From the sequence record SRR31156797_3944: 35,320 bases of DNA; one strand, given 5' to 3'. The notes under the pieces were generated by a model. It made no database searches. It saw nothing but the letters and a program-made list of their open reading frames with translations, and was not told the DNA's origin. Of the stretch, positions 2-15,600 are shown piece after piece. The first letter of the stretch is position 1, and each line of letters opens with the position of its first letter. The translations under genes were made by a program, and so were the position numbers.

Positions 2-709
2 AAAGGGGATACGCTCAAGGGGCTTGCCACGATTGGAAACGGAGAGGATCCCTTAAGCAAAAAAATTGATGAGGCAATTGCGACGGGCCTTAGTAAAGGC
101 GTCGAACTTGCTTATGAAAACTATCCTGAAGAGACAAGGCAGACTTTGGAACTGCTTGGTGAATTGAACGGCGCAGTCGATGCCACAGTCACATGGGTTG
201 ATGACAAGACTGGAAATACCATTAGCCGTTCTTGGAATTTGTTGGATGATGATACAAAGGGCTTGCTTAAGCTGGGCGGCAAGGCGTTAGGAGTTACAGT
301 TTCGATTTCCAGCGGCGGAGTTGGAACGCTTGCTCATTTGAAGAAGGTGCAAACCGTTGCCAAAGCGGTTGACAAGGTTGTTCCTGATAGCGTTAAGAAT
401 TCTAAAGCCGTAAAGGCACTGGCTAACAATAGTGACAATACAGTCGATACCGGAACCCAGTGGAGCCGCGTTCCCAAAAGTCTTCAAGACCAAATGGCGC
501 TTGAAGCTGCGAAGAGAGGAGCAGGGAAGAAACTGCCCATAAAACTTGAAGATCCTCGGTACAAAGGAATGGATAAAATGGAGTACAAAGTTAAGTCAAA
601 AAATGGGAGGGACTCCGTTGTTCACTATGTGCGAGACCCGAAAACAGGTAAAACATACGACTTCAAATTCAAAAAGCATAGTCATGATAACCCTAAACCA
701 CTAAAATAA
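2..709 (+). CDS. C-terminal part of a polymorphic toxin (CdiA/hemagglutinin/Rhs-like), truncated by the window edge
   Basis: Frame +2 is open from base 2 (KGDTLKGLATIGNGEDPLS...), so the TTG at 146 is not the true start. A Gly/Ala/Lys-rich linker precedes a small basic domain (DPRYKGMDKM...VHYVRDPKTGKTYDFKFK) resembling toxin tips. A small acidic ORF follows. Confidence 0.7.
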   Translation, partial: KGDTLKGLATIGNGEDPLSKKIDEAIATGLSKGVELAYENYPEETRQTLELLGELNGAVDATVTWVDDKTGNTISRSWNLLDDDTKGLLKLGGKALGVTVSISSGGVGTLAHLKKVQTVAKAVDKVVPDSVKNSKAVKALANNSDNTVDTGTQWSRVPKSLQDQMALEAAKRGAGKKLPIKLEDPRYKGMDKMEYKVKSKNGRDSVVHYVRDPKTGKTYDFKFKKHSHDNPKPLK

Positions 710-720
710 GGACAGGTTTT

Positions 721-1143
721 ATGTTGTTAAAGTGTATTGGGAATAAGCGCGAGCATCTTGTTAGTGAGCGTGCAAGAATCGCATGGGATGAAGACTACAA
801 TATTGACGAAACAAATTTTGAGATTGGCAATAAATATATTGCATACGGAGTGGTTTTCAGAAAAGGAGAAGACTTACCTCTTTATTTGGTTTGTGATAGT
901 GAGGATGATGAATACCCAGTTTCAGAGTTTGCAGAGCATTTCGAAATCATTAATCATGAAATTCCAGAAGGTTGGCTTTTTACTACGTCAACAAGCAACT
1001 GGGAAGGGTCCGTAATTATGCCGGAGAGAATGGTAACTGAGTACCTTTTCATGGAAAAACTGTATGATGGTGACCCTGATGCTGTGCAGTATTTTCTGAA
1101 ACAAAAGAAGATGATGAAGGAAAGGTATAAAGATCAATTGTGA
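721..1143 (+). CDS. Putative cognate immunity protein
   Basis: 140-aa acidic ORF 11 bp downstream of the toxin stop, with an AGGA RBS. Typical toxin-immunity arrangement. Confidence 0.6.
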   Translation: MLLKCIGNKREHLVSERARIAWDEDYNIDETNFEIGNKYIAYGVVFRKGEDLPLYLVCDSEDDEYPVSEFAEHFEIINHEIPEGWLFTTSTSNWEGSVIMPERMVTEYLFMEKLYDGDPDAVQYFLKQKKMMKERYKDQL

Positions 1144-1163
1144 ATTAGAGAATTATGAGGAAT

Positions 1164-1175
1164 GGGGTCAGGTCT
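1164..1175 (+). repeat. GGGGTCAGGTCT motif, putative RAYT-element end / REP-like sequence
   Basis: Motif lies ~35 bp upstream of the RAYT remnant and resembles ends recalled next to RAYT-type transposase genes. Single copy seen. Confidence 0.4.
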
Positions 1176-1209
1176 TTTGTTTTAGCATTTGCAGTGCTAC
1201 GTATCATAA

Positions 1210-1320
1210 ATGGCAAGACCAATCAGACTCCAATTCCCTGGGGCACTTTATCATGTGATTGGGCGGGGTAACGTTCGTCAATCCATAGTTGCGGACGATC
1301 AAGGTCGGAAACTCGCATAA
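1210..1320 (+). pseudogene. N-terminal remnant of a RAYT / IS200-like Y1 (HUH) transposase
   Basis: Translates to MARPIRLQFPGALYHVIGRGNVRQSIVADDQGRKLA*, matching the conserved RAYT N-terminus (MARPxRxxxPGAxYHVxxRGN). Stops after 36 aa, before the HUH motif. Not in the ORF track. Confidence 0.8.
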
Positions 1321-1412
1321 CGCTCTGGCCCTAAAACGGGGAGACCTCCAGGGTAACCAGTCCACTAGAAGTCCTTGTTTGATCTTTCTATAGATAGAAG
1401 GCCACTTGCCAT

Positions 1413-2351
1413 TTAGGTTGTCAAATGGCGATGAAAAATTCCAACTAAAATTTGTCCTTCATCTGAGGCTTTCGGGCAGAAGTGAATACGGTCTCTATCT
1501 GGCTTTATTTTACAGTGCCACCAAAACACTACCTCTTGTTCATTGATTTTGATGGTGCGCGCTTTTTTTGCCTTTGAATTTTGTTTAGTCTTCCCATTTT
1601 CATCTGTTACGGTAATCCCATGTGCCCCGAATTCATTGGTAGCTCTCTGCCAGTCCCCTTCAAAAATAGTATTCCCATAATCAGAGAGTACGCCAAGATG
1701 AGTCGCGATGTCGCCAACGAGCTCTGTGTATTTCTTACTCATATCCTTTATTCCAGACAGGCACCCTTCGACAAAGTCTATAGATGGAAATGCTAGAGAA
1801 ATACGACTATTTAGCTCTTGATGAGTTTTTGTCTTATTTACAATAATCCACCTGAAAAACAATTTGTGTTGTTCTAACGCGTCGATGAACCATAATGGGA
1901 TAGTCTCGCCGTTATTTTTAACATCCATTTGGCCAGACCTTCGCCCTCCCGCGAGGACTAAGCAACTAACAGCATCTGTTTGGTTGTCTATCGTGTACCG
2001 ATGAGCCCACGCGATGGAGGGGGCTTCTTCTGTAGCAGTGTCATTGATTATGACATCAAATGACGCAGGCCAATCGAGTTCCAACTCTTGCCATTTGGGC
2101 ATGGGACCAAAAAGTGCTGTGACCCTTTCTTTTACCTCATGAGGTATTTTGATGGGTGAAGTGTCTGAATATAAATCGTAAAAAGACAGATCAGCCCAGA
2201 CGGGAATATTAAATAAATCTTCAGAGTAACAGGCCTCGCAACCAGCCTCTATGGCCTCATCTAGGTTGTCGAGCAGGCTTTCCAACGATTCTAAACAGCC
2301 TTCTGCACCAATCTTTTTGAAGTCCCAACTGGTTTCATCAACAATAAACAC
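1413..2351 (-). CDS. Putative defence effector/nuclease (Menshen NsnC-like position)
   Basis: 312 aa, GTG start 4 bp after the ATPase stop. C-terminus WHCKIKPDRDRIHF...ILVGIFHRHL resembles RelE-like nuclease tails in DUF3696 operons. Confidence 0.55.
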   Translation of the reverse strand: MFIVDETSWDFKKIGAEGCLESLESLLDNLDEAIEAGCEACYSEDLFNIPVWADLSFYDLYSDTSPIKIPHEVKERVTALFGPMPKWQELELDWPASFDVIINDTATEEAPSIAWAHRYTIDNQTDAVSCLVLAGGRRSGQMDVKNNGETIPLWFIDALEQHKLFFRWIIVNKTKTHQELNSRISLAFPSIDFVEGCLSGIKDMSKKYTELVGDIATHLGVLSDYGNTIFEGDWQRATNEFGAHGITVTDENGKTKQNSKAKKARTIKINEQEVVFWWHCKIKPDRDRIHFCPKASDEGQILVGIFHRHLTT

Positions 2352-2355
2352 TCTG

Positions 2356-3510
2356 CTACCTCGAACGCGGGCGTCTAACTCTTGTCAAAGCCCTTATGTC
2401 AAGTTGGTACTGATCAAAAAAACCTGGAGGCCAATGACTTATGCTTCCTGTTTCAGAGAACTTAAGCATCGCAGGCGGGGTGCCTCCCGTGTCAAAGAAA
2501 TGGACACAGGCTTGATCTGCTCGTAGGACTTTTTGTTCTCCAATTGCTAGACGAACTCCGTTGAGGAGATGGTCGGAATGAGTCTCTATGAAAATTTGAA
2601 CTCCTGCTGCTGCCATTTTGGCCAAAAAATACCCCATCCTTGATTGGCCCTTGGGGTGCAAGTGTGCCTCAGGGCTATCAATTATTAACAATTGCCCTTG
2701 TTTGGCGAGAAGGCCGGCTATAATGATGGGGAAAGAATACGTTAGTCCGTAGCCAATGTTTGATGGTCGTCGCCAATCACCAGTGTCGCCCAGCCGGAGT
2801 TCTAATCTATACAAATTGGTTTTTTCTACAGCTTGCACATTTCCTTGAGCACCAGGGAATAGTTCGCTTGCCCATGCATTAAACTGCCTTCGAAGAGTCT
2901 TGGCTTTGTCATTGGGGTTGCAACGGGCATCATCAACATCATCGTCAAGATGTTTGTGGAACCACCACGGAGCAAATTCACCATTGACACCAACATCAGC
3001 AAATATTGGATGTGCGCCCTCTGGGGCAGGAAATACATCAGCAGTACCCATTCGCGTGGCACTAAGATAAATTACCTCTTGCAGACTCTGGTAGAGCTTG
3101 CCAAGCCTGCCATCAGATTCAAGAACTTTTGTGCCTGTATTTGTTGAGTGGGGGCTCTCTTTGAGCTTGTCTTTGGGGGCGTCTAAGATTTGCAGTGATA
3201 TGCCGTGAGTCCGGTCGTTTGCTCGCAGTTTCCATACAAATTCAGCATCCTGACTTTCAAGAGTGAACTTAATATGACCACTTCCTGAATTGAGAATCTC
3301 TCCTGGGGTACCTAACCGAACGAGTGGTCCATTTAGTGGGAGAACGGCATATCTCTTTTCTATTTTAAGGCCTTGCGCCAATAGTAACAAGCTTTGAAGG
3401 GTTGTTGACTTCCCGGCAGCATTCAGCCCCGTCAAAAGTGTTAGCGGCGCTAACGGAAGCGAAAGAGAATTAAAGCATTTAAAATTTTTAATTTTGAGAT
3501 TGGTAAGCAT
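2356..3510 (-). CDS. ABC/AAA_21-type ATPase with C-terminal DUF3696 (Menshen NsnB-like)
   Basis: IKNFKCF start, Walker A GLNAAGKST, signature-like IGYGL, Walker B/D-loop LLIIDSPEAHLHP, H-loop ETHSDH, and a DUF3696-type WPPGFFDQ motif. Confidence 0.85.
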   Translation of the reverse strand: MLTNLKIKNFKCFNSLSLPLAPLTLLTGLNAAGKSTTLQSLLLLAQGLKIEKRYAVLPLNGPLVRLGTPGEILNSGSGHIKFTLESQDAEFVWKLRANDRTHGISLQILDAPKDKLKESPHSTNTGTKVLESDGRLGKLYQSLQEVIYLSATRMGTADVFPAPEGAHPIFADVGVNGEFAPWWFHKHLDDDVDDARCNPNDKAKTLRRQFNAWASELFPGAQGNVQAVEKTNLYRLELRLGDTGDWRRPSNIGYGLTYSFPIIIAGLLAKQGQLLIIDSPEAHLHPKGQSRMGYFLAKMAAAGVQIFIETHSDHLLNGVRLAIGEQKVLRADQACVHFFDTGGTPPAMLKFSETGSISHWPPGFFDQYQLDIRALTRVRRPRSR

Positions 3511-3513
3511 GCC

Positions 3514-5172
3514 TTAAATAACCTCAGCTAGAGCTTCTTCCATTAGCCCGAAACGTGTTTTTACTTGCAGCAATCCGTTCGTGCCGGAACTTATTGCTCG
3601 GAAGAATGCGTCGTCACGCAACAAGTTGGTCATCATTTTCCGCAGTTCATGACTGTGTTCCTTTAATGTGTCTTCGTCGTAACGCGCGAGTAGCACTGAG
3701 CAGACATCAAAAAGAGCTATGTTAATAACTGTCCGGTCTGCCCAACGAGTATGAGATACATGTTCAAGTGATTTGCGAAAAGCATGCTTTTTAAAGAGCT
3801 TGTGATTGATTCTCATGGAGTGCTTGAAAAGTTCAAAGAGTTCGACTAGTTCCTCTTCGCTATAAGAGTTCATTTCATCTAGCGTCTTAGCCAAAAAGTC
3901 ATCCATGTCCGCTTTGTATTGATCAACACCTAGAATTGAAAAGGCACAAAATCGGTTGATAACCTCTCGGTCACGCATCTTTTTTGTGTCAATACTCCCG
4001 CCTGTTGCTTCCAAAAAACTCTTGTGCTTTGAAGCGTCACGAATCCATATTGTGGCTGGGCCATTAAAAAGGCAGTTACGCATTTGCTGTCGCGCAAGAG
4101 GTTCGCCACTATTAACACGGTCAAAAATATCTAATTTTGCTCTATTGGGTGCTTTTGCATCGAGGATATAGAGTGTTAGTTGAGTGTCTTCAAGTCTCTC
4201 TTGTAGTGTGACTGATAAATTCTTAAAACTTTTACCGATATATGCTTCGTCAGAATTATTGCTATTCGCCTTGATACCTGGGATTGAGATGGAGAATTTA
4301 TTATTAAGATATCTTTTAAAGGTGTTAAGACGCTGTAACCCATCAACAACAATTATGCGACCATCATCTGCTTCTGCTACGTAAAAAACTGGAAGGGGTA
4401 TGCGCATCAAGCAAGATTCAATAAGTCGTGATTGTTGAGTACGTTTCCAAATAAAGTCCCTTTGAAAATCTGGAGTAAGAATAATTCTATCATTATTAAT
4501 TCGTTTTACGACTTCATTGACTGTACGCTGTTCTTTCCGCACGAAGACAGAGTCTAGCGGGTAGCCTGACCAGCCGGTTGATACTGTGCCCGCATTGCTT
4601 TCATCATAGCCATCAATGTCAACAGAGGGTGGCAAGAAGTCCAGCAGATGTGAAAGCTCTGCACAGCGGTTTTCCACCTCAGCCATAAAGCTAGAGTGGA
4701 CATCATATAAAGCGCAAAATAGGGCGGATATACTTTGGGTGTTCTCTTGGTGTTTAATTAGTTGAACTGTCTGGTTACTGTAAGAATCTAGTCCTATAAC
4801 AGGTATTTTTGAACACCAAAAATAATTTTCAGGTGATTTTGCCAATAGGTCCTTCTTGTCAACCGAGGCAGGCAAAACAATTTTAATATCAATGGTAAGA
4901 TGAGATGTGTCAGAGTACTTTTGTCCTCCCTGTTTTCGGGTGAGTACTCCTAAAGCACGAATTCCTTTTTTCCATGCCGTAGGTTGCCCTTTGCTATTGT
5001 CTGAGCCTAGACACAAAATGCAGTAGCAGCCGGTGGTTACAGAAGACGGAACCTGAGTACAAGATACAGTTATTTGAAGAGCTTTTTCAGGGGCTGTGTG
5101 CAGTGAGTCTATTTTTTTTATTTCAGACACACTGTCTTTCCCCAGTCTTATTATTGCAAATTTGTCCTGCAT
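3514..5172 (-). CDS. DUF262 (ParB/Srx-like, GmrS-type) protein with extra N-terminal domain (Menshen NsnA-like)
   Basis: DUF262 motifs PDFQRDFIW, LIESCLMRIPLP, VVDGLQRL and IFDRVNSG. Start moved to ATG 5172 (GGAGAG RBS, no overlap with the MTase). Confidence 0.85.
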   Translation of the reverse strand: MQDKFAIIRLGKDSVSEIKKIDSLHTAPEKALQITVSCTQVPSSVTTGCYCILCLGSDNSKGQPTAWKKGIRALGVLTRKQGGQKYSDTSHLTIDIKIVLPASVDKKDLLAKSPENYFWCSKIPVIGLDSYSNQTVQLIKHQENTQSISALFCALYDVHSSFMAEVENRCAELSHLLDFLPPSVDIDGYDESNAGTVSTGWSGYPLDSVFVRKEQRTVNEVVKRINNDRIILTPDFQRDFIWKRTQQSRLIESCLMRIPLPVFYVAEADDGRIIVVDGLQRLNTFKRYLNNKFSISIPGIKANSNNSDEAYIGKSFKNLSVTLQERLEDTQLTLYILDAKAPNRAKLDIFDRVNSGEPLARQQMRNCLFNGPATIWIRDASKHKSFLEATGGSIDTKKMRDREVINRFCAFSILGVDQYKADMDDFLAKTLDEMNSYSEEELVELFELFKHSMRINHKLFKKHAFRKSLEHVSHTRWADRTVINIALFDVCSVLLARYDEDTLKEHSHELRKMMTNLLRDDAFFRAISSGTNGLLQVKTRFGLMEEALAEVI

Positions 5173-5186
5173 AATCTCTCCAAATT

Positions 5187-6569
5187 TTACATACATGCAA
5201 CGTTGCTGCACACATCCAGCGAGCTCGATTCGCTGGCTTTAGTGACTCTGGATAATTTTATTAATGCTTTTTCGAGAGGTTTAAAAAGAGTTCTTCCTTG
5301 GCTGTTGACTCTACGCAATATGCCTGTTGCAGCATTGGGGCTTAAAAAGTATTTTTCATCAACTTTCTTCGTCTCTATTATGCGTAGCAGCCTTTTTTCA
5401 ACAGGGGTATTGGGGGCTGGTGAGACTTTATTGGAAAAATACCAATCGTCATATGCTAACCCTCCGCTTGACCACTGGAATTTCGAAGAGTCTTTTTCTG
5501 GCTTAAGCTCTAAACTACTCAACTGCATCGGCGAGGCTTTTCTAAAATCATCAAATGAGCTTGTTAAGATATTGAGTTCCTGGGGGGGCTCTTGGTCAAG
5601 AGCGTCAATGATATCATGCTCCCCAGAAAGGCCTGCTACTATTCTGGCAGCAAACCACCCAACAACAGGAACACAAACTGCGTTTCCAATTGCGTGATAC
5701 CGGAGAGTGTCAATGTCATCGTCGGACGATGGATAGTCCGTTTCAGGTAGCGACCATCCCACAGGGAATCCTTGTAAGCCTTCACATTCAGTTGGGGTTA
5801 AACGTCTTACTGAATCTGTGTAGGCGACATATGTCCTACTCCAGTCGGTTCCTGTATGTCTTCCAGAAGTCGCGGCGAGGCAGTACCCAACAAGGGGAAC
5901 ATGCGCACCCGTGTTTTTGCACTTTGTTGGTGTAATAAAACCTTTTCTTGCATTTTTTACGATCCCACCACCTTCTGCTTCATAAAGACTGTGAAGAGCT
6001 AAGTCTGGGCGCCCCTTCCAAGCACAAATAAAGATCCGTGGCCTTGACTGAGGTGCGCCAAAATAGCGAGCATTCACAACTCTCCAAGCTACACCATATC
6101 CGATGTCGGTAAATGATTTGATGATTGTTTTGAAGTCGTTGCCTTCATGCGAGCTTAAAAGACCTGTAACATTCTCGAGTAGCACAACTTGAGGGAGTTT
6201 TTGCTCGACTAACTCAAGGAAAGGGAAGAAAAGTCCAGAATTTTTACCTTTTAGGCCGTCACGTCCGAGCCATCCACGTGCCACTGAAACATCTTGGCAG
6301 GGAAATCCTCCACACCAGACCTCTGCTTCGGGCAAGTCCTCAACCTTTATATTATTTATGTCGGAACTTAGCGGTAATTGCGGCCAATGTCTTTTCAACA
6401 CGCTTTGGCAGTATTTGTTGATTTCACAGTGAAAACTTGGTGAAATTCCACTACGCTCAAAGGCCAAATCAAACCCACCAATCCCAGCAAAGAAAGAATT
6501 AAATTTGAATTGGCCTGATCCTTTGCCTGCTAACTTGAGTCTTCGCAGCTTATTTCCACGGGATTTCAT
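5187..6569 (-). CDS. DNA (cytosine-5) methyltransferase with C-terminal extension
   Basis: Motifs I FAGIGG, IV GGFPCQDVS, VI ENV, VIII PQSRPRIF, IX RRLTPTECEGLQGFP and X IGNAV. Confidence 0.93.
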   Translation of the reverse strand: MKSRGNKLRRLKLAGKGSGQFKFNSFFAGIGGFDLAFERSGISPSFHCEINKYCQSVLKRHWPQLPLSSDINNIKVEDLPEAEVWCGGFPCQDVSVARGWLGRDGLKGKNSGLFFPFLELVEQKLPQVVLLENVTGLLSSHEGNDFKTIIKSFTDIGYGVAWRVVNARYFGAPQSRPRIFICAWKGRPDLALHSLYEAEGGGIVKNARKGFITPTKCKNTGAHVPLVGYCLAATSGRHTGTDWSRTYVAYTDSVRRLTPTECEGLQGFPVGWSLPETDYPSSDDDIDTLRYHAIGNAVCVPVVGWFAARIVAGLSGEHDIIDALDQEPPQELNILTSSFDDFRKASPMQLSSLELKPEKDSSKFQWSSGGLAYDDWYFSNKVSPAPNTPVEKRLLRIIETKKVDEKYFLSPNAATGILRRVNSQGRTLFKPLEKALIKLSRVTKASESSSLDVCSNVACM

Positions 6570-6822
6570 CTGTCAATTTTGCCTTTCGGTTACTGTATGT
6601 GTTCTGTGTGATGGGGACGAGAATAGTTTTCCCATCCTAGCCGTGTCAGCCGAAAACTTTACCTTATCTTTCAATGTTTCGCCATCATCTTTTTTTGCGT
6701 TTTTATGTTAATATCCCAATATTTTGGAGTTGTTTCGAAGGCTGTGAAGGGTGAAGCGGCTCATTCGTTCATTGGTATACTGAAAGGACTTTCATAGCAT
6801 AGGGCTAGGACGAGTGGCCTCC

Positions 6823-6841
6823 AAGGGGAGGTCTCCCCCTT
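6823..6841. repeat. Short GC-rich imperfect palindrome at the tnsE stop
   Basis: AAGGGGAG-GT-CTCCCCCTT. Its core 6827-6838 is the exact reverse complement of 1338-1349. Confidence 0.5.
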
Positions 6842-8444
6842 AAAGAGTGGTCAATAGATTGTAAGCTCTGTCCGCCCATCCTGCTATAGTCTCAGTGTCA
6901 AGCAAGCCCCTTTTGATAGAAGGGGTGCGTGGATGTGAAACACCTTTGAAATGTCCATTTCCACAAAGCTCAGCTAGCAGACATTTGGGCCAGCACAATG
7001 AAGAACGGATCAGAGCTTTTTCTACTTCAATCAGGCCTGTTTCCCAGTTTGCCGAATCTCCTACCGCAAGAATCTGTGTCGATAGAGCCTTGGCTCCGTC
7101 GGATGTGTCGACTTCAAGAAGGTGGATGCGTTTATCCTCAACCGCTAAGCAAATAACCGCCATCCCCCTTGGGGTTTCATCAGTAGAGAGGATGTATTTT
7201 TTGCATCGCTTGAGTCTGGGGAGTTTTCTGATTTCCATATCAAGCAAGTCGCACCCGTACGATTGAATCAGGACATCTATCATTTGTAGGAAGCAGCTGA
7301 ATTTGTTCTTGAGAAGTTGGCTGTCGTCACTGATGTCATTCGTGATGCTCCAAGTGGCTTGTCGCATGCCTTGATTGGTGACAGATTCCTCTGTGCTCAC
7401 GAATAGATCTTGCTGCTCTTCTTCATTTGTTGCATTAGCGCCATGAACTCTTTTTTCTCGGGTGGCGATAATGGATGTAACAACTGCACGATCAAATTCG
7501 ATATCCACCTTTGGGGCTTCAATAACAAAAGGCTGCGTAGACTCCCTGGCGGTCGCTCCATTATGGAGTGTGAGACTCCCAACAGATCCTATCTCGTGAA
7601 CTTTACCTCCAGCTCTGCCGTCATTAATAATCTGAGCATAGTCAGGATGAAAGTAGTCAACCCTTGCAGGTAGGTCAGGAGAGAGCCCCATTATTCTGTC
7701 TATCTCATAGACGAATAACGTGTTGCTATGAGGATCGTAATTGCCATGAAGATCAAATTGCACCTTTCCAAGTGGTGGTGGGTCAAATTGGAAATTCCAA
7801 TGTCGCAAATGGCCTTCATTTTCGCCGTTAATGATTTGATTCCAATGAATGCTCTGAAACGAACTCCGGGCATCTTTGTCCAACAATATCCAGCTTAAGT
7901 GTTTTCTGCTTGCATGATCACAAAGGAGTGACAAAGGGAAGCCCGCAGTAGGCATAACCCTTACGATTGCAGCATTGTCCCAATGTGCATACTCGATCTC
8001 AAATTCTGTTTCTAAACAGTCAGATTCAAGGGCTGTGCGTGAAAGGTAGCTATTATGAAAGAAAAGCGCTCGGGCCAACTCAAACTGTGGGATGTAGATC
8101 ACAGTCGAGTCTTTCGTCATGAAAGCAAAGCAATACTGGTCCGCATCTCTTCGACCACTGAAGCCTTCAATAGGGCATGTCCCAATCCGTTTTACATACC
8201 ATTCATAATGCGCAGATGTGGAGACTATTCTTCTGCGGTTTGCCCTTTGCTGCCCATGGGGCGCATTGATCACTCGCCCTCGGACAACAGCCGGCGCATT
8301 GGACATTGTGAATGAATGCAGGGGTTGGTTGGGATGACAATGTACGTTTACACTCCATTCTGCCCCGTTGGCGGGTCTAAACAACTGACCAATCTCTTGA
8401 ATTGTAGTGTTTTTATCGAATTCAGCAAAATTATATGAGTCCAT
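6840..8444 (-). CDS. tnsE: Tn7-like transposition protein TnsE
   Basis: 534 aa, directly after tnsD. Motifs IYIPQFELARALFFHNSYL and LLEVDTSDG...LST are characteristic of TnsE. Confidence 0.88.
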   Translation of the reverse strand: MDSYNFAEFDKNTTIQEIGQLFRPANGAEWSVNVHCHPNQPLHSFTMSNAPAVVRGRVINAPHGQQRANRRRIVSTSAHYEWYVKRIGTCPIEGFSGRRDADQYCFAFMTKDSTVIYIPQFELARALFFHNSYLSRTALESDCLETEFEIEYAHWDNAAIVRVMPTAGFPLSLLCDHASRKHLSWILLDKDARSSFQSIHWNQIINGENEGHLRHWNFQFDPPPLGKVQFDLHGNYDPHSNTLFVYEIDRIMGLSPDLPARVDYFHPDYAQIINDGRAGGKVHEIGSVGSLTLHNGATARESTQPFVIEAPKVDIEFDRAVVTSIIATREKRVHGANATNEEEQQDLFVSTEESVTNQGMRQATWSITNDISDDSQLLKNKFSCFLQMIDVLIQSYGCDLLDMEIRKLPRLKRCKKYILSTDETPRGMAVICLAVEDKRIHLLEVDTSDGAKALSTQILAVGDSANWETGLIEVEKALIRSSLCWPKCLLAELCGNGHFKGVSHPRTPSIKRGLLDTETIAGWADRAYNLLTTL

Positions 8445-8446
8445 GA

Positions 8447-9952
8447 TCAGTATCCGATGCTTTGCAAAAAATATCGTGTTTGTTCTTTCATTCGGCTTTC
8501 ACTCAATCCTGTAAGTCGAAGCAACTGTGAGTATGTTAGTTTTTCTTCAACAGAATCGTGGTGCTGTATCGTAACAACGATCCTCCGAATTTGGTATTCC
8601 GCAACGCCTTCGCAATTTCTTTCTAAAAAGTGTGACGACAAAGGCAGTTTGTCCATCTTCTTGCCATATGAGATACACTCTGCCTTTTGGCAATACCAAG
8701 TCTTGGAGCGTCGAGGGGCTTCCAGCCTATCAAGATGCTCATTCCTCACTTGTTTAAGCCGTCTTAGAATTTCCAAGTCTCTGAAGTGCCAGTCAACTCT
8801 TTTAGACTCTGACCGTGTTGACTTACGATATTTCGCATTCGTTTGCAGCAACCACTCATGATCATGTCTGTAAAGCCAGGTGTAAATATGGTCGCCACCC
8901 AGTAAGCGACCTTGCCTAGTGCCAAGATCTTTAAGAATCGATAGCCATTCAGCACGCTTTTGGATGAGCTTCTCTTTGGGCATATCCATTTGCGGTAATT
9001 CGCGCGGTAGAGGCTTGGATATAACCGTTTGGCTTGCTTTGGATAGGATGTCGGCAAAAGTCCATTCTGGCCCCATAAGGGCCTCCAGGATCACGATATG
9101 CTCTAAATAGTTGAACGTCTTCCTGTGCTTTCTAACGATCATTCGCAGCCAGGAGGATTGAGTGTCGTCTAGGACGATGCCATGCCGTGCCAATTGTCCT
9201 TCACGCCAACAGAATAGAACTCTTTCTTTAAGGTGATCATATTTGATTTTGCCTCCACGCATGAGACCCAATTCATGGGCAAGGGATCTATAGAATACTC
9301 CCCACTGTTCTGGAGAAGGAGAAAGGCGGGGCGGAAGATTGAGAAGCTCGAAAATCCTATGTTCAATGCGCTTGTCCATCTGATCGGGAGCATTGTGTGG
9401 AATATTGGCGACAGTTGCCGGAGACAAAGCGACAAAATCGTGTCGGCGATAGTTGCGCAGTCTGTGCTGAACCTTAACCAATCCAGCATGTTTAAGGCAG
9501 AATTCACTTCCCGCGGCTTGCCACAGGCGCTCCCAATAGTATTCACCATAACGGTCAAGCTGCTCTGCTAAACAGGTTAGACATACCCTGAAATGTCTTC
9601 TCGACTTAATTCGAGAAGTGGCAATTCCTAATGAAAGGTGAGCAGCACCCTTCGACGGCCCTTTCATCAGCCTAAGGCAGCGCAGTCTTCTAGATTCAGG
9701 AACGAAGGGGGCATAGAGGGGCAGCAACGTGTGATTGTACGCCAGTTGTTCAGGCGTTAGGCCCAGTGATTTAGGATAATGGCTAGATAATACTTTCAGG
9801 TGAGATGGAAGATCGACTGTGGCAATGACCATGCGATTGCCGAAGGCCTCATCGAGCAGACGTTTTGGGCTGATAATGCCGAAATGGACTCCGGCCCGCG
9901 CTACAGTGCTGTACAAAAGTTCTTCAGGGTATGGCACGGGGAAATTCAGCAT
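8447..9952 (-). CDS. tnsD: Tn7 target-site selector TnsD (TniQ family)
   Basis: N-terminal FPVPYPEELLYSTVAR, HTLLPLYAPF, Zn-binding CLTC...YW.RLWQ...CLKH, and C-terminal YTWLYRHDHEWL and RVDW. 501 aa. Confidence 0.93.
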   Translation of the reverse strand: MLNFPVPYPEELLYSTVARAGVHFGIISPKRLLDEAFGNRMVIATVDLPSHLKVLSSHYPKSLGLTPEQLAYNHTLLPLYAPFVPESRRLRCLRLMKGPSKGAAHLSLGIATSRIKSRRHFRVCLTCLAEQLDRYGEYYWERLWQAAGSEFCLKHAGLVKVQHRLRNYRRHDFVALSPATVANIPHNAPDQMDKRIEHRIFELLNLPPRLSPSPEQWGVFYRSLAHELGLMRGGKIKYDHLKERVLFCWREGQLARHGIVLDDTQSSWLRMIVRKHRKTFNYLEHIVILEALMGPEWTFADILSKASQTVISKPLPRELPQMDMPKEKLIQKRAEWLSILKDLGTRQGRLLGGDHIYTWLYRHDHEWLLQTNAKYRKSTRSESKRVDWHFRDLEILRRLKQVRNEHLDRLEAPRRSKTWYCQKAECISYGKKMDKLPLSSHFLERNCEGVAEYQIRRIVVTIQHHDSVEEKLTYSQLLRLTGLSESRMKEQTRYFLQSIGY

Positions 9953-9955
9953 AGC

Positions 9956-11614
9956 CTATCCCGTGTTGAGCCAGTCCTTCATGTCAAAGATCATGGAAGA
10001 TTGCTTCAGATGTCCGTACATGTGGGTATCCGTCTGAGAGAACATAAAACGAAGATCCTTGGATTCCAAAGTATGCCATCTATTTCGAGGAACTGACTTA
10101 GTTTTGGGCTTCGTTTTCTCTTTAGGAAGGTTATTGGATTCATTCCACTCCAGCACCATTGCAACCATATCTTTCATTGTGAGGTCTGGGTGTTCTTGAG
10201 TTACCTGCTTAACCAGTGGCGTAATAGCTGATTTTTCGCATTCCATCGCCAATAGTAGGTCATAAAGCCGTCTTGCTTTAGGATTCCCTTCAAAATCGAT
10301 TAATGTCTTATCGGTTGCTTCTTTGGCCCTAATTGAGGCTGTAAGCTGAAGCACCTTCTTGTCAATCTCAGGAACAATCAGATCCGAGAACACGGCTATA
10401 CGGTCAGGATCTTCAGAGCGCAGTGCCGTCAGCATAGGGTGGACTGGTCGAAGTTCATCCTCGTACACTTTTTCTAAAAGTCCAGGTGTAATTCTTTCCA
10501 CTCCAGCGGCAATGGCACGTAATTGGCCCAAGACAAACAGCTTTACCACTATATCGATGACGCCTTGAGACAAGTTATACCAACATGCTCGCACTTCTTC
10601 GCTCAGGCACTCATCTCGCTGTTGCAACCATTGATAGGTCCAAAGCTTGTCTGTAAACGCAATCCATTCCGTTTTACGGACCTTGCCTGTTTTGTGATCG
10701 ACTACTGGGGCAGGGGCTTTCATGGGCTCCCACAAAAGCGAACCAAAGCCTGCACCTCGTCGCCCCGAACGCAAATCCCTTTCAAAAATTGGTCTAGCCT
10801 TTGGCGTTCCTACAAAGATCACCGGCAGACCAATGACATTTACCAGCGTAACAAAAAAATTAAGCATCTTATCGACGCCGCCCGAGCGCTTACGGCTTAA
10901 ATGCTGTATTTCGTCTATGATGAGGACACCAATGGCATGAGCATTGGCCACCTGGCTCATCATAGCCAAAAGCGTGTCTATTCCATGACGTTTGCGGGTG
11001 TACTTGGTTTCATAATTGGTATGGAGCACCCTATCGAGTGCCCGGAAGAACTGAATGCAAAGATTCTTGAGCGAGCCGTCATGCGGACAATCCACCTTGA
11101 GATAGGTCAATTGGGTGAAGTTGTACTTCTCATGGAAAATGACTTGAGGATACGTCGATAAAATTCGATTCAGGGTTGTGCTTTTCCCGCTTCCAGAGCA
11201 TCCGATAAGTGAGAGGCTAGACGCAGTCGATTTTGCTTGATGAAAGCGACAAACTTTCAGGTCTCCCGTCATGACCCGTTCGTAACCATTCTGCATGTGC
11301 GTGTTCAAAGAGCCATCTTCCAAGTTTCGACCGACGTATCCGCGACGTATCATGATGGATATCTTCTCTTCGAGTTGTAGATGGGCTGCAAGAGGCTGAA
11401 AGAAGTCATCTAATAAAGAAGCAATGATGTGTGCTCGTGTCCGTCCATCCGCGTAGATGTCTCGTGGCTCGAACTGGATGTCGCCAATGAGTCCTCTCTT
11501 GACCTGTTTAAGGGTCATTGATGGGGGCAAAGCCTCAATGAACGGATTCCCTCTGTATTGAGGGATCTCGGCCTCCCGGTAGAAGGCCTTGATCATATTG
11601 GGAGGGAGCGTCAT
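9956..11614 (-). CDS. tnsC: Tn7 AAA+ regulator TnsC
   Basis: YRGNPFIEALP, Walker A GCSGSGKST, KVDCPHDGSLK, Walker B LIIDEIQHL. 552 aa. Confidence 0.95.
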   Translation of the reverse strand: MTLPPNMIKAFYREAEIPQYRGNPFIEALPPSMTLKQVKRGLIGDIQFEPRDIYADGRTRAHIIASLLDDFFQPLAAHLQLEEKISIMIRRGYVGRNLEDGSLNTHMQNGYERVMTGDLKVCRFHQAKSTASSLSLIGCSGSGKSTTLNRILSTYPQVIFHEKYNFTQLTYLKVDCPHDGSLKNLCIQFFRALDRVLHTNYETKYTRKRHGIDTLLAMMSQVANAHAIGVLIIDEIQHLSRKRSGGVDKMLNFFVTLVNVIGLPVIFVGTPKARPIFERDLRSGRRGAGFGSLLWEPMKAPAPVVDHKTGKVRKTEWIAFTDKLWTYQWLQQRDECLSEEVRACWYNLSQGVIDIVVKLFVLGQLRAIAAGVERITPGLLEKVYEDELRPVHPMLTALRSEDPDRIAVFSDLIVPEIDKKVLQLTASIRAKEATDKTLIDFEGNPKARRLYDLLLAMECEKSAITPLVKQVTQEHPDLTMKDMVAMVLEWNESNNLPKEKTKPKTKSVPRNRWHTLESKDLRFMFSQTDTHMYGHLKQSSMIFDMKDWLNTG

Positions 11615-13702
11615 CTATGCATCCTCATCGTCAAAAAGGTCGTCAATGTGGTCAGGGAATTCATACGTATCATTCCATTTTTCATTAAAGGGGACCGTCT
11701 TTGCAACGGCGTTCGTAGCCCCTTCTCTCTTGGTTTTGGGCAAGGTCTTACGCTCTTCTCTTTTCTCGCGTTCCCTGTTGTCACGAATATCTCGAATCCT
11801 TTGTGTGTTGGACGCACTGTTTTTCGCCGGAGTTTTTTCCTCGGCGTCTGCAATGATTTCTGCAACACGGTTTTCGTGTAATCGTTTTTGGGCATCCTGT
11901 CGTAATTTGCTTTTTGCGACAGCCTTCTTTTGATCCTTTTTAATCTTCCACACGTCCCAAAATGAAGCTCCGGCAAACTCTCTTGAGCGAGGCGTCAAAC
12001 GGCATGACCAATATTCAGATAGATCGCTTGAGGGAAACAGGTAGACAACGTCCGCATTGGCAGGATCATATGCAGCCTCAAATCCTGTAGGCCTTCGGAC
12101 TTCGCTAGAACGATGATGCCAGCCCTCAGCAATTACTTCTGAGGATGTGTAGTATACGCCAAATACCGAGACACCGAGAGGAGAAATCGTGGCCCGAGTT
12201 CTTGGCAACAAACTGATTCGAATAGCGTCTTCGTGAGCTGCGCGTAAGCGACCCGTTCTGTGTTGAGTACCCCAATTCCAAATTGACAAAGGAGTCATCT
12301 CCAAATTCGACGGCATATCCGGTTCTCTGTCGTATTTCTCAAGCACGCTGTACTGATTGTGCATCAGTACTGATGAAAGAATAATTCCTTTGAAATCCCG
12401 TATGGAAAGTTTGGCGTCCAATCTGTAATCCCTGCCACCATGTTTTTTTACCATGGTCTCACCTACAACGCCGGGAGCAAATGGTTTAAAGTCAGCTTGG
12501 ATTGTCCTGAAATTGCGTTCAACAATGCCTTTCGCATCTCCTCGATAGGGAGGCGTGTTTTCAATTCGTACAGAAAAACTGCTTTCAAGGGTTTCGATCT
12601 GGTGCCCCAGCAACTCTCCTCTATCAGCCAAAATAGCATCAGGTAGCCCAATTGTAGGCCACTCCGCCTCAGAGATATCGTAATCAAACTCGTTGCAGTA
12701 ATCGACCTTGCTTGCCATGGCCATGGTCAAGGCCTGGATGGCTGCCGGGTAAGATGGATTTTCAAAGCCCACATAGAATCCGGCCACCATACGGCTGAAG
12801 ACATCCATGACGAAATAGACCACAGGCCGACCAACTATATTCCGCCTTTCACTGTCAGACACCAAGTAAATATCTGCAATGGTGGCGTCTATTTCGTAGC
12901 GAGCACCAGGACCAAGCGTCGCTGCTGTAGCGGTCGATGTAAGAGGCCGAGTGTCCTTGTTGAACTCAATCTTACTCTTTCGCTTTTCCAGCGTCTCAGA
13001 AAGTTTGTACTCGCGCTGGTAGAAATACCTCATCTGCCGAAGCGTAGGCATTTCAGCTTCTTCAACATCAGGGAAATACTGTTCGTAAATGTCTTTGAAT
13101 CTACGATGGGCATATGGGAAACTGCATCCCTTGTCCTTCAACAGATATCTGTCGATGGCTATCCGGAACAGACGTTCTGTTTGCTCATCGACAATTGCCC
13201 CAATGCCAGGCGTGAACTCACGAGGCCTTCCAAGCTTTTTCCCGTTCGCTGCTCGCTTTTTCCCCTTTCCTCCGGAGTTCTTATAGTCAGGAAGAAGGGC
13301 GTTGGGCGTTTGCCCTCTTTGCCAGTAGCGCCTCAGCTGCTTGTACAAATGCGGTTTAGACACCTTCCCACTCGAAACGACTTCATTGATCCGAGCGGTT
13401 AACGCCTTGCGATCAAAGTAATCCAGCTCATCAAGAGTCTCCTGGACAAACGCGTAATTGGTATCCCGTTTTACTTGTGCCGTGCTTCCCGGCTCAGGCC
13501 TTTCCATAGCGAGCTCAACATGGGGATCTTCAACCCGGAAAAGAGATTCATCTTCGATAGATTTAGCTAATTCATCGATTAATACGAGCGCAGGGTATGC
13601 ATTAGGATTTTCCAAATCAATCCAAACCAACTGCTCTCCGAGCAGCGAGAGGACCCGAAACAACTGCCCTTCATATTTCAATACTTCATTGATTCTGAAC
13701 AT
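11615..13702 (-). CDS. tnsB: Tn7 DDE transposase TnsB
   Basis: LRRYWQRGQTPNALLPDY, DDE motifs YEIDATIAD / LADRGE / KGIVERNF. 695 aa. Confidence 0.95.
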   Translation of the reverse strand: MFRINEVLKYEGQLFRVLSLLGEQLVWIDLENPNAYPALVLIDELAKSIEDESLFRVEDPHVELAMERPEPGSTAQVKRDTNYAFVQETLDELDYFDRKALTARINEVVSSGKVSKPHLYKQLRRYWQRGQTPNALLPDYKNSGGKGKKRAANGKKLGRPREFTPGIGAIVDEQTERLFRIAIDRYLLKDKGCSFPYAHRRFKDIYEQYFPDVEEAEMPTLRQMRYFYQREYKLSETLEKRKSKIEFNKDTRPLTSTATAATLGPGARYEIDATIADIYLVSDSERRNIVGRPVVYFVMDVFSRMVAGFYVGFENPSYPAAIQALTMAMASKVDYCNEFDYDISEAEWPTIGLPDAILADRGELLGHQIETLESSFSVRIENTPPYRGDAKGIVERNFRTIQADFKPFAPGVVGETMVKKHGGRDYRLDAKLSIRDFKGIILSSVLMHNQYSVLEKYDREPDMPSNLEMTPLSIWNWGTQHRTGRLRAAHEDAIRISLLPRTRATISPLGVSVFGVYYTSSEVIAEGWHHRSSEVRRPTGFEAAYDPANADVVYLFPSSDLSEYWSCRLTPRSREFAGASFWDVWKIKKDQKKAVAKSKLRQDAQKRLHENRVAEIIADAEEKTPAKNSASNTQRIRDIRDNREREKREERKTLPKTKREGATNAVAKTVPFNEKWNDTYEFPDHIDDLFDDEDA

Positions 13703-14510
13703 GAAGCATCTCCTCTATGACCACGGCTTCAGCGACAACCAAATCCAAAGGGGCAAGTTTGCGAAAGGCAATATTGATATCGAACAAGAATATACGCCGG
13801 GCTAACAATTGTCTGATTTCCCGTAAGGTTTCTCCATGTTCAAGCTCGTAAGCCACATCCAGAGACTTGGCGAGGTTGATTAATGTTGACTCTTTGCTTT
13901 CAGCAAAATGGTGACTGTAGAATTCCATTCGATGGCTTAAATCAGCATCAACGATTTCGTCCCGCTGAGCGGGGTAGAGCCACTTAATATTCTCAAGCGC
14001 GACAGAAGGGATTTCTCTTTCAGTCACGAGGTACCATGGAACGCCTTTCTGCTCCCAATATCTGCGCTCCAATTCCAACTTCTCTATCACGCGAGGCTTC
14101 TCAAGCTCGCTGGAATACTTTGCCTGTAGCGCAAAACGCATTTTGGCAGGGTGAGATGTATCAACAAGAAAGTCCGAGGTCATATACTGAAGGACGCCAG
14201 ACGATGAAGGATGAGCAATACCGCTTTGCTCAGCTATCTCGATGGTGAGTTCTCTATGAAGCGGAAATTGTTCTCGGATGTCGGTGACATCCTGCTGCCA
14301 CTCCAAAAGTAGAAATACGGCAAGCTCCAGATCGGAAAAGAGGTGGTGCGTTCGGCGTACATTGTGCCCGAAGACTCGATGGGAACGTCCCTGTGAGGGG
14401 ACATCCCATACGGTCAGCCAAGGTTTATAGTTTTCTTGGCGGCCAGCACCACGCCCCTCATTACGCCAGTGCTCAAACTTCTCGTCGGATGGAGAATATC
14501 GTTTGGACAT
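13686..14510 (-). CDS. tnsA: Tn7 endonuclease TnsA
   Basis: EGRGAG...YKPWL, HHLFSDLE, DIREQFPL, MTSDFLVD, EKLELERRYW. Start set at ATG 14510 (AGGAG RBS). Overlaps the tnsB start. Confidence 0.95.
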   Translation of the reverse strand: MSKRYSPSDEKFEHWRNEGRGAGRQENYKPWLTVWDVPSQGRSHRVFGHNVRRTHHLFSDLELAVFLLLEWQQDVTDIREQFPLHRELTIEIAEQSGIAHPSSSGVLQYMTSDFLVDTSHPAKMRFALQAKYSSELEKPRVIEKLELERRYWEQKGVPWYLVTEREIPSVALENIKWLYPAQRDEIVDADLSHRMEFYSHHFAESKESTLINLAKSLDVAYELEHGETLREIRQLLARRIFLFDINIAFRKLAPLDLVVAEAVVIEEMLHVQNQ

Positions 14511-14686
14511 AAAAGCCGCTCCTAATTTTAAATTGGATGTTAACCAAAGAGAGGCTTGGGGCACAAATAGTAATCTTGCCTAAGGCTTAAAAAAATGAAT
14601 TTTTGGGGTTGAACCATCTTGTCAATTTGCGATATCAAACACTCTATTCACGCAAAAAGCGTGTGAAGATAAGCGGGGGGTAGAAC

Positions 14687-15436
14687 GTGAACAAGAACAA
14701 CCAAAAATCTGATGCTGTCGTAATCGTTGTGAAAGGATTTCTCTCAAACACTAAAGAGCAATCTGGATTTGAGGACTTTTCCAGTGTGTTAGACAGATAT
14801 GACCGTGTAGAGATGGTCGGTTATGATTGGAATACAGGTACGAAGATTGGAATATTTGTCAGAGCAATATTCTCCAGCGTTGTATCTCATCTGTTCAGAA
14901 GGTTGGTATTAGAAGAGCAAGGCAGCGGGGTCAGGCGAGAGCTAGCCCACTTTGCCTTAAACTCTGTAACCATTTCTTACAGAGTTTGGAGAAATGCAAT
15001 GCGCAACTCGCTAATCGCTGCACCTGATTTGCGCCGTTTTATTATAGAGAACCAGCAGACGTATAAAAGGGTGATTATTATTGCGCATAGCTTAGGGTGT
15101 CGTCTGTTGCTCAATGCATTGAAAGAGAGATTAAGTCAGAAGGTTGAGAAAATCTTTTTGGTGGCAGGGGCTGTTGAAGAAAGTAATGATCTGCAATGCC
15201 TTGCAAGGTCAGCCTGCAGTGTGGAGAATCGATTTTCTACGAATGATAATGTGTTAAGGCGATTGTATAAAATTGCTGAATTGAGTGCTCTTGGAAGCCC
15301 AATTGGGGTGGCGGCAGTGGTCTGTGGAGGGATAAATAATATCGATTGCACATCTCTTAAGTGCGGCCATGATTTAGCACCGCACATTGAACCAATCGTT
15401 CAGCGCACATTTCCAAAACGTTTGCTTAGCTCTTAA
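14687..15436 (+). CDS. Alpha/beta-hydrolase fold protein (DUF726/DUF900-like)
   Basis: Nucleophile elbow IIAHSLG, FSTNDNVL (acid) and CGH (His). GTG start with a G-rich RBS. Confidence 0.7.
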   Translation: MNKNNQKSDAVVIVVKGFLSNTKEQSGFEDFSSVLDRYDRVEMVGYDWNTGTKIGIFVRAIFSSVVSHLFRRLVLEEQGSGVRRELAHFALNSVTISYRVWRNAMRNSLIAAPDLRRFIIENQQTYKRVIIIAHSLGCRLLLNALKERLSQKVEKIFLVAGAVEESNDLQCLARSACSVENRFSTNDNVLRRLYKIAELSALGSPIGVAAVVCGGINNIDCTSLKCGHDLAPHIEPIVQRTFPKRLLSS

Positions 15437-15437
15437 C

Positions 15438-15488
15438 AAAAACCGTTTCTGGTACGTGTGGCGAATTCCAACTCCAGAAACGGTTTTT
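15438..15488. terminator. Probable bidirectional terminator inside the Tn7 right end
   Basis: Perfect 15-bp inverted repeat AAAAACCGTTTCTGG (15438-15452) / CCAGAAACGGTTTTT (15474-15488) with a 21-nt loop, between the convergent hydrolase and glmS. Confidence 0.7.
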
Positions 15489-15490
15489 TA

Positions 15491-15535
15491 TTAACAACTT
15501 TATTGTTATGTTAACAACTATATTGTCATGCTACA
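15491..15535 (-). repeat. Tn7 right end: terminal 8 bp and two tandem TnsB-binding sites
   Basis: Minus strand reads TGTAGCAT-GACAATATAGTTGTTAACAT-AACAATAAAGTTGTTAA. On the plus strand, 15491-15510 and 15511-15530 are 18/20 identical direct repeats. Architecture matches Tn7R (TGT-N5-GACAATAAAGT). Confidence 0.88.
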
Positions 15536-15600
15536 ACAGGTGCTATCCTTGAGGTCTGCTGATACCAACCGTGACAGTTTTGGCCTGATGACGGATGGTG
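15536..15600 (-). other. attTn7: predicted 5-bp target duplication ACAGG (15536-15540) and TnsD recognition region in the glmS 3' end
   Basis: The element terminus lies 31 bp after the last Val codon of AKTVTV, the same spacing recalled for E. coli attTn7 relative to AKSVTV. Confidence 0.75.

Follow-up and report, generated by a model that had tools for sequence, protein, structure and literature searches.

What does a DNA methyltransferase do at the head of a Menshen defence operon? The question is raised by a four-gene operon in a 35,320-nt stretch of DNA from sequence record SRR31156797_3944 (the window, by which we mean that whole stretch), in which the gene of a C5 cytosine DNA methyltransferase (MTase) precedes the genes of NsnA, NsnB and NsnC within a Tn7-like element. 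Our analysis points to the first 185 residues of NsnA, an extra N-terminal domain (N-dom) that was overlooked in the first-pass annotation, a set of notes made by a model from the letters of this DNA. We take N-dom, and not the DUF262 core of NsnA, to be the physical link to the MTase. One clade of C5 MTases is coupled with N-dom on two effector chassis that are unrelated to each other, that of Menshen and a McrBC-like one, and this coupling is solid. Because N-dom and the MTase clade travel together, the MTase is best seen as a functional partner, and we consider it very probable that the two proteins form a writer-reader pair.

The four genes share one orientation on the minus strand and span 6569..1413, with gaps of 14, 3 and 4 nt as read from the sequence. 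The MTase gene (6569..5187, 460 aa) is followed by the NsnA gene (5172..3514, a DUF262 protein of 552 aa), the NsnB gene (3510..2356, an ABC-type ATPase of 384 aa with a C-terminal DUF3696 domain) and the NsnC gene (2351..1413, a predicted effector of 312 aa with a GTG start). The tight packing and the limits given in the first-pass annotation were confirmed, and its proposal that a DUF262 protein, a DUF3696 ATPase and an effector make up the layout of Menshen is borne out by the PADLOC Menshen models, which match NsnA, NsnB and NsnC with E-values of 1.8e-117, 4.9e-104 and 8.8e-93. The three-gene module is Menshen, in the order NsnA-NsnB-NsnC within one operon. NsnA starts at the ATG at 5172, which has a GGAGAG Shine-Dalgarno sequence ahead of it and lies 14 nt past the MTase stop, and not at the GTG of a longer open reading frame (ORF) that begins at 5211 and overlaps the MTase gene. 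Positions 33-383 of the 385 in the PADLOC NsnA model align only with residues 207-565 of that longer ORF.

NsnA consists of N-dom (residues 1-185, 5172..4618 on the minus strand), a low-confidence linker (residues 184-208), a ParB/DUF262 core and a helical C-terminal part; a ParB/DUF262 domain joined to a C-terminal DNA-binding part is what characterises NsnA in Menshen. The core matches the Pfam family GmrSD_N/DUF262 (E 1.6e-21), contains the DGLQR motif and in Foldseek matches the BrxU/GmrSD structure 7p9k. AlphaFold2 gave a predicted local distance difference test (pLDDT) score of 79 for the whole of NsnA and of 89.8 for N-dom alone, the latter with a predicted template modelling (TM) score of 0.88, and in this model N-dom forms a divergent beta-barrel of the PUA/EVE-like kind with an extension of three helices behind it. 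The best Foldseek match in the Protein Data Bank (PDB) is the EVE structure 2eve (E 5e-4, probability 1.00, TM-score 0.52), and further matches include 2p5d, 2ar1, 2g2x, THYN1 with DNA containing 5-methylcytosine (5j3e), VcaM4I (EVE-HNH), ASCH, YTH and the N-terminal domain of TgMcrB. The top matches of good probability are all EVE, ASCH, YTH or Lon-N structures. The likeness to PUA-like structures is one of fold, with TM-scores of 0.4-0.5 and identities of 7-13%; N-dom matched no Pfam family even at E 10 and, used as a profile, no PDB sequence, while the lead to EVE in the Atlas is weak (rank 16, score 0.84). We also considered a B3 fold, as found in LlaJI.R1 and EcoRII-N, and rejected it, as the Foldseek matches listed include no B3 structure and those of good confidence are PUA-like. 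A search with tblastn gave no match to N-dom in plasmids or phages, and the domain is kept in 46 full-length NsnA homologues from Desulfobacterota-like metagenome-assembled genomes (MAGs), Yersinia, Klebsiella, Serratia, Pantoea and Vibrio. Since its NsnA carries an added folded N-terminal domain, the system of the window belongs to what Li et al. 2025 call Type II Menshen; they found that 77% of NsnA proteins lack such an addition and 23% have added sensor domains (PMC12065111).

The MTase matches Pfam PF00145 (E 6.8e-56), the NCBIfam dcm model TIGR00675 (193 bits, cut-off 100.65) and the PADLOC MTase_II model (9.1e-68), its nearest solved structure is M.HhaI (E 6e-27), and its translation contains the motifs FAGIGG, PCQ, ENV, QSRPR and GNAV, so that all catalytic motifs are present and the enzyme is probably active. 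We compared 44 MTase sequences that include both partner types, Menshen and McrB-like. In the target-recognition stretch between motifs VIII and IX, CLAATSGRHTGTDWSRTY, 16 of the 18 positions are invariant and one more is nearly so; near-invariance in both partner types suggests one common target motif. The same 44 sequences share a C-terminal extension of about 150 aa past motif X (residues ~310-460, 5187-5640 on the minus strand), whose invariant residues include W366, G369, G370, Y407 and the stretch SPNAAxGILRRV. A partner might make contact with the MTase through this extension.

To see whether the MTase and N-dom belong together elsewhere, we scanned species-representative genomes for NsnA relatives and kept 80 loci. 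Three of these carry N-dom: L033 (Vibrio bivalvicida), L058 (a Desulfovibrionaceae MAG in which genes are frameshifted) and L072 (Paraburkholderia fungorum). All three have a close homologue of the window MTase (492 bits in L033, 551 bits in L072 and fragments of 21-199 bits in L058). None of the other 77 loci has an MTase of this clade, and a C5 MTase of any kind occurs in the flanks of four only. As a control we took the 71 loci without N-dom in which an upstream ORF of 150 aa or more lies no further than 2.5 kb away; six loci without such an ORF, mostly with a short flank, were not counted, and L058 and L072 were read by hand and left out. The nearest upstream gene is a DNA MTase in five of these 71 loci (two C5, one HsdM and two Eco57I/MmeI-like). 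The first-pass annotation had named as grounds against its own proposal that three-gene modules of this kind might usually lack the MTase, which is true of Menshen at large and does not hold for the N-dom clade.

Two of the three loci repeat the whole cassette. The order MTase-NsnA-NsnB-NsnC is found in L033, where it adjoins a P4-type integrase, and in L058, where it adjoins integrase, relaxase and primase-polymerase genes, that is, inside integrase- or relaxase-bearing elements that are not Tn7. Because the same cassette recurs within other mobile elements, the four-gene arrangement in the window is not a matter of chance. The flanks differ among the window, L033 and L058, and neither a fifth gene nor a restriction endonuclease was found to be conserved beside the cassette. 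A megablast search of E. coli genomes with the 5.6-kb cassette gave no match. The closest genomic copy is that of L058 (8980-13780), whose NsnA is 72% identical; its MTase, NsnA and NsnB genes are split into several ORFs and its NsnC gene is whole, which could reflect long-read assembly error or decay. Two of the loci without N-dom also have a C5 MTase close by. In L009 (8257-11098) a different C5 MTase, with 89 bits to that of the window, ends 53 nt before a 521-aa NsnA that lacks N-dom, which may represent a separate association of Menshen with a methylase that arose independently; in L013 a C5 MTase with a helix-turn-helix domain lies about 1 kb upstream.

Our protein-level searches extend this linkage beyond the 80 loci. 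Two proteins were counted as lying on the same contig when the longest contig bearing each match, in the NsnA or McrB-like list and in the MTase list, was of identical size. Among the matches listed (120 NsnA and 120 MTase), 21 of the 62 N-dom-type NsnA proteins share a contig with the MTase compared to 0 of the 58 NsnA proteins without N-dom, the latter serving as the chance control for same-contig matching. Among the same matches, 20 of the 25 closest N-dom NsnA proteins on contigs of at least 5.4 kb share their contig with the MTase. Seen from the other side, 52 of the 120 MTase homologues listed are tied to an N-dom protein, and 32 of the other 68 come from contigs below 4 kb. The neighbourhood survey of the MTase and DUF262 clades that the first-pass annotation had suggested thus finds the two on the same contigs and the cassette in other mobile elements, and its view that the MTase is coupled to the module and is no bystander holds.

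The pairing is not confined to Menshen. We searched 1.84 billion representative proteins exhaustively and recovered 132 representatives of the N-dom family; in every full-length match but one, N-dom is at the N-terminus. A domain scan of the 88 representatives of at least 280 aa found 70 McrB-like proteins (55 with AAA_5 and 15 matching the McrB-like core of L072), 11 NsnA proteins with DUF262 and 7 that are unclassified. Among the matches listed, 31 of 119 McrB-like relatives share a contig with the same MTase clade, and all 31 carry N-dom. Both arrangements meet in L072 (9409-19148), where a single MTase heads an operon of an N-dom-bearing McrB-like protein (646 aa) and a McrC-like protein (DUF2357 and PDDEXK_7), and the operon is convergent with an N-dom Menshen (NsnA-NsnB-NsnC) that has a Vsr mismatch endonuclease gene just upstream of its NsnA. 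Genes for an integrase, YqaJ and DUF932 lie nearby. In the trees of the MTase and of N-dom the sequences sort by partner, with 2 label changes compared to 14.9 and 21 in shuffles and 0 of 500 shuffles as low. The N-dom of the L072 NsnA groups with the McrB-type N-doms, just as the single L072 MTase is of the McrB type, although the branch is long and the evidence weak. We regard a McrBC-type nuclease motor with its own MTase as the ancestral home of N-dom. The same writer-reader pair is thus found on a McrBC-type nuclease motor and on the ParB/ABC/effector relay of Menshen, and its presence on two unrelated effector machines implies that methylation discrimination may be a plug-in module for innate defence, one that may turn innate defence systems restriction-modification (R-M)-like or methylome-sensing. 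This bears on the methylase-associated McrBC branches that Bell et al. 2024 flagged as surprising (PMC11090510).

How, then, might the pair work in the operon of the window? The account we favour, tentatively and with slightly less than even confidence, is that of a Type II Menshen that captured a portable MTase and N-dom module and works in an R-M-like manner, with unmethylated sites being what is sensed. In this scheme the MTase would mark one fixed short motif across the host DNA, and N-dom would probe the same cytosines and engage unmethylated sites only, for example those of incoming phage DNA. Engagement of N-dom would switch the ParB/DUF262 NTPase of NsnA, the signal would pass to the NsnB ABC-ATPase, which would hold NsnC, and NsnC, probably an RNase-type effector, would be released or activated and the infection stopped. 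The relay from NsnA to NsnB to NsnC is modelled on the predictions of Li et al. 2025, among them an NsnB4-NsnC2 complex in which NsnB holds NsnC (PMC12065111).

NsnB matches the Pfam families AAA_15, AAA_21 and DUF3696, and its Walker A (GLNAAGKST), Walker B (LLIIDSPE) and H-loop (HSDH) motifs are intact. The fourth gene had been put down in the first-pass annotation as a putative nuclease; its PADLOC match is full-length (PDLC03914, 8.8e-93) and makes it NsnC, while the nuclease assignment finds no backing in Pfam, where no family was found. In Menshen, NsnC combines an inactive PIN-like N-terminal domain with a C-terminal effector (nuclease) domain. For the NsnC of the window the Atlas lead to YoeB/Gp49-like (BECR RNase) clusters is weak (scores 0.88 and 0.76). 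Most NsnC C-terminal domains are BECR RNases according to Li et al. 2025 (PMC12065111), and the lead for the NsnC of the window would fit that type.

That N-dom reads the target of the MTase and prefers its unmethylated state is what we infer, unmethylated sites being our best guess for the direction of sensing. This direction is favoured because a McrBC motor whose reader bound 5-methylcytosine (m5C) would be self-destructive next to an m5C writer of its own. There is a tested precedent in LlaJI, in which MTases accompany a McrB-like NTPase with an N-terminal reader and the unmodified site is recognised (PMC12707154). For Menshen itself, Li et al. 2025 raised the possibility that systems with solitary methylases target non-modified genomes (PMC12065111).

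Several observations weigh against this R-M-like account. The structural neighbours of N-dom whose ligands are known all bind modified bases (m5C, 5-hydroxymethylcytosine (5hmC) or N6-methyladenine), and a PUA-like domain with a preference for unmodified sites is not known to us. Over 88 N-dom-bearing representatives the median net charge of the first 140 residues is 0, so that a reader that lies in a DNA groove is unsupported. An RNase-like NsnC of the abortive-infection kind, to which the weak lead points, needs an infection signal and not a self/non-self mark on DNA. The linkage also has gaps: five of the 25 closest NsnA proteins (P0008, P0015, P0021, P0026 and P0027) have no MTase match among the matches listed, and the enteric/Vibrio clade has no same-contig match among them, L033 being the one case of the pairing there. 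The latter may be explained by score, since MTases of that clade would fall below the matches listed (492 bits for L033 compared to 537 for the lowest). Finally, Li et al. 2025 read the PUA domains of NsnA as sensors of modified DNA (PMC12065111), and the reader of LlaJI is of the B3 fold and not PUA-like (PMC12707154).

The same fold makes the opposite direction of sensing a serious rival, because known PUA-like domains read modified bases. The MTase would then be the source of a signal and not a self-mark: it would write m5C into the host DNA, N-dom would detect 5-methyl-dCMP or m5C-containing fragments once a phage degrades that DNA, and binding would trigger NsnB and NsnC so that the infection is aborted. 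We consider such a danger signal unlikely, at about one chance in four in our judgement, though several points speak for it. Known members of the PUA/EVE-like fold bind modified bases, an RNase-type effector (itself a weak lead) agrees with abortive infection, and a system that brings its own MTase works in any host after transfer, which agrees with a mobile cassette. The direct precedent is PUA-Cal-HAD of a 2026 preprint, whose PUA domain is activated by Dam-derived m6-dAMP set loose when host DNA is degraded; its PUA family is also fused to McrB, HNH, HEPN and TIR domains and is linked to N6-adenine methylases that come without restriction enzymes (10.64898/2026.01.15.699771). The places where N-dom is found tell against sensing of m5C products, for 70 of the 88 N-doms sit on McrB-like NTPases and L072, the sole such locus read, pairs its protein with a PD-(D/E)XK McrC-like nuclease. 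On McrB, loading of the motor onto DNA is the expected task of the N-terminal domain, so that reading m5C beside an m5C writer would cut self. Furthermore, generic sensing of m5C nucleotides needs no single MTase clade with a near-invariant target-recognition region, and it gives no account of why the type of N-dom follows the type of MTase in L072, weak as the evidence of that long branch is. N-dom is also without sequence relation to the PUA-Cal family, and among the 88 N-dom proteins there are no Metallophos fusions (0/88) and no calcineurin-like domain. If sensing of m5C products were nevertheless true, the system would match, on the cytosine side, the m6-dAMP trigger of PUA-Cal-HAD and would remain self-sufficient when transferred horizontally, and a module that writes a mark and then senses its release would have been re-used on both McrBC-like and Menshen chassis.

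An improbable further possibility is that N-dom does not read DNA at all and instead binds the MTase, perhaps at its C-terminal extension, in a manner reminiscent of Type I/III systems, with the MTase acting as the subunit that recognises the sequence and, where sites are unmodified, recruits NsnA (or McrB) or licenses it. Co-divergence of the MTase and N-dom is what a protein-protein interface would be expected to produce, the extension past motif X is conserved with many invariant residues, and the first 140 residues of the N-dom-bearing proteins are not basic. A PUA-like fold, however, is typically a binder of nucleic acids or bases, and the co-divergence is also explained by common descent and linkage alone.

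We give as little credence to a Type IV-like role, in which N-dom senses a phage modification such as 5hmC or a glycosylated base and the MTase makes a mark that is ignored or is a decayed R-M remnant. In its favour, Li et al. 2025 take NsnA PUA domains for sensors of modified phage DNA (PMC12065111), Bell et al. 2020 predict that MTases beside EVE proteins make marks which the EVE domain ignores, and the DUF262 relatives GmrSD and BrxU are modification-dependent (PMC12707154). A Type IV-like role leaves unexplained why one MTase clade and N-dom are so tightly linked on two chassis and in several mobile elements, and the cassette conserves no restriction-enzyme partner, its flanks being different in the window, L033 and L058.

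The R-M-like Menshen that we favour has relatives among known systems, and the comparison defines what is new here. Menshen was reportedly first described by Millman et al. in 2022. Its gene order and three proteins are the same as in the window, which adds a C5 methylase as gene 1 and the 185-residue N-dom. Close relatives are also the Type II Menshen systems with PS-PUA1 or PS-PUA2 of Li et al. 2025, which likewise join NsnA to a PUA-like N-terminal sensor. Methylase neighbours without a nuclease were noted for Menshen operons in the same work, and 27.9% of Menshen operons sit with BREX, Type I/III R-M or methylases, solitary ones included (PMC12065111). The proposal in the first-pass annotation of an undescribed R-M-like variant was therefore too strong, as the same idea had been raised in that work. 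In its main text, however, the PUA domains and the methylase neighbourhoods are treated separately, and neither the link of one MTase clade to one N-dom family nor the sharing with McrB-like proteins is stated. What appears to be new is that one C5-MTase clade pairs specifically, and apparently obligately, with one PUA-like family and that Menshen and McrBC-like systems share the pair. We found no description of this pairing in the literature searched, which left many subscription journals outside; the supplements of Li et al. or a follow-up of Bell et al. could hold one.

Other systems share parts of this design. LlaJI-type systems likewise combine C5 methylase(s) with an NTPase that has an N-terminal reader, and LlaJI restricts unmodified DNA; it has a B3 reader and two MTases where the window has a PUA-like reader, one MTase and a Menshen chassis (for LlaJI, PMC12707154). 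Identity with LlaJI or with a methylase-associated McrBC can be rejected, since by Pfam both McrB and McrC are absent from the window; such methyltransferase-associated McrBC branches are widespread and were left for later work by Bell et al. 2024 (PMC11090510). A classical R-M system was rejected as well, since no cognate endonuclease family was found in the operon or the neighbouring ORFs. Searches of Pfam, PADLOC and NCBIfam gave no restriction-enzyme family in the four operon genes, and the neighbouring ORFs match no family in any of the three, which agrees with the remark in the first-pass annotation that no conventional restriction endonuclease is adjacent. NsnA does have a secondary PADLOC match to REase_II over its DUF262 region (3.3e-18), far below its NsnA match. 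PUA-Cal-HAD likewise places a PUA-like sensor on an abortive-type effector and has a PUA family tied to methylases and fused to McrB, but it senses Dam-derived m6-dAMP and depletes dNTPs, and its methylases are N6-adenine enzymes where the window MTase is a C5 enzyme. The core of NsnA shares the DUF262 fold with BrxU of the GmrSD/BrxU Type IV group, and NsnA is not a GmrSD, as it has GmrSD_N only and by Pfam no DUF1524/HNH. The N-terminus of NsnB resembles the MAD3 ATPase of MADS; this identity too was rejected, with NCBIfam MAD3 scoring 46.2 bits compared to a cut-off of 420 and PADLOC mad3 far weaker than NsnB.

For Menshen at large, N-dom and its MTase clade offer a concrete and tractable route to the trigger. 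A defined reader domain that the sensor has gained, and that always travels with one methylase, makes the trigger testable through the methylase and the isolated 185-residue domain.

The operon is carried by a Tn7-like element, in keeping with the well documented role of defence systems as Tn7 cargo. The transposition genes lie upstream of the operon, all on the minus strand: tnsA (14564..13686, Pfam TnsA N- and C-terminal domains), an ORF of 695 aa in the tnsB position (13702..11615), tnsC (11614..9956, AAA_22 and Tn7_TnsC_Int), tnsD (9952..8447, TnsD and TniQ) and tnsE (8444..6840, TnsE_C 8.4e-36). Pfam assigns no family to the tnsB-position ORF at E 0.001, and NCBIfam gives a weak match to IS481 family transposases (E 6e-4); this ORF appears to be a divergent TnsB. 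Tn7 carriage, as called in the first-pass annotation, is thus supported by the Pfam domains of TnsA, TnsC, TnsD/TniQ and TnsE, with the transposase match of the tnsB-position ORF remaining weak. The operon had also been placed directly behind tnsE; it does lie downstream of that gene, at a distance of 270 nt between the tnsE stop (6840) and the MTase ATG (6569).

A probable right end of the element lies at 15491..15538, judging from the pattern of repeats. Two exact copies of TTAACAACTWTATTGT, spaced 20 nt, occupy 15491-15526 next to a glmS-like gene, and the right-end sequence finishes ...CTACAACA, 5 bp from the stop of a GATase and SIS (glmS-like) ORF (15543..18368, minus strand). Tn7-like transposons have two ends with repeated TnsB sites and insert downstream of glmS, and the sequence here resembles such a right end at a customary target. 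The inverted TTAACAACTWTATTGT that a left end would carry was not found within 1-1413; the left end therefore lies beyond the window, and the cargo includes, besides the operon, at least the two unassigned ORFs at 2..709 and 721..1143.

The spacer between tnsE and the MTase gene (6570..6839, minus strand, 270 nt) is likely to contain the operon promoter and is offered as a candidate region. It holds three weak sigma-70-like matches (9/12) on the minus strand at 6748-6620, the regional total being no higher than in shuffles, and across 1000-7000 the scans for promoters and terminators did not exceed shuffles in number of matches. The window contains two exact copies of the 12-mer GGGGAGACCTCC, inverted relative to each other, at 1338-1349 (plus) and 6827-6838 (minus), and the pair brackets the four-gene cassette, one copy overlapping the tnsE stop codon and the other lying about 65 nt past the NsnC stop. 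The expected count is 0.13, two or more copies occurred in 2 of 100 shuffles, and the motif is absent from the 80 loci. The pair could mark a cassette boundary, belong to two terminator hairpins or be due to chance.

Three further observations concern the neighbouring genes. The glmS-like ORF at 15543-18368 is 941 aa long, with GATase_6 and SIS matches at residues 262-649. As GlmS is about 600 aa long, the start of this ORF may be over-called, or the ORF may encode a different amidotransferase. Between tnsA and the putative right end lies an ORF of 249 aa that resembles alpha/beta-hydrolases (DUF726 / Ser_hydrolase; 14687-15436, plus strand), followed by a hairpin with a T-run at 15441-15490, and its position is unusual for a Tn7-like element. 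On the far side of the operon, and converging on it, are the two plus-strand ORFs at 2-709 (open at its 5' end) and 721-1143 (small and acidic), for which no Pfam, PADLOC or NCBIfam match and no homologue in the 80 loci was found; they give the impression of a polymorphic-toxin C-terminus with its immunity gene.

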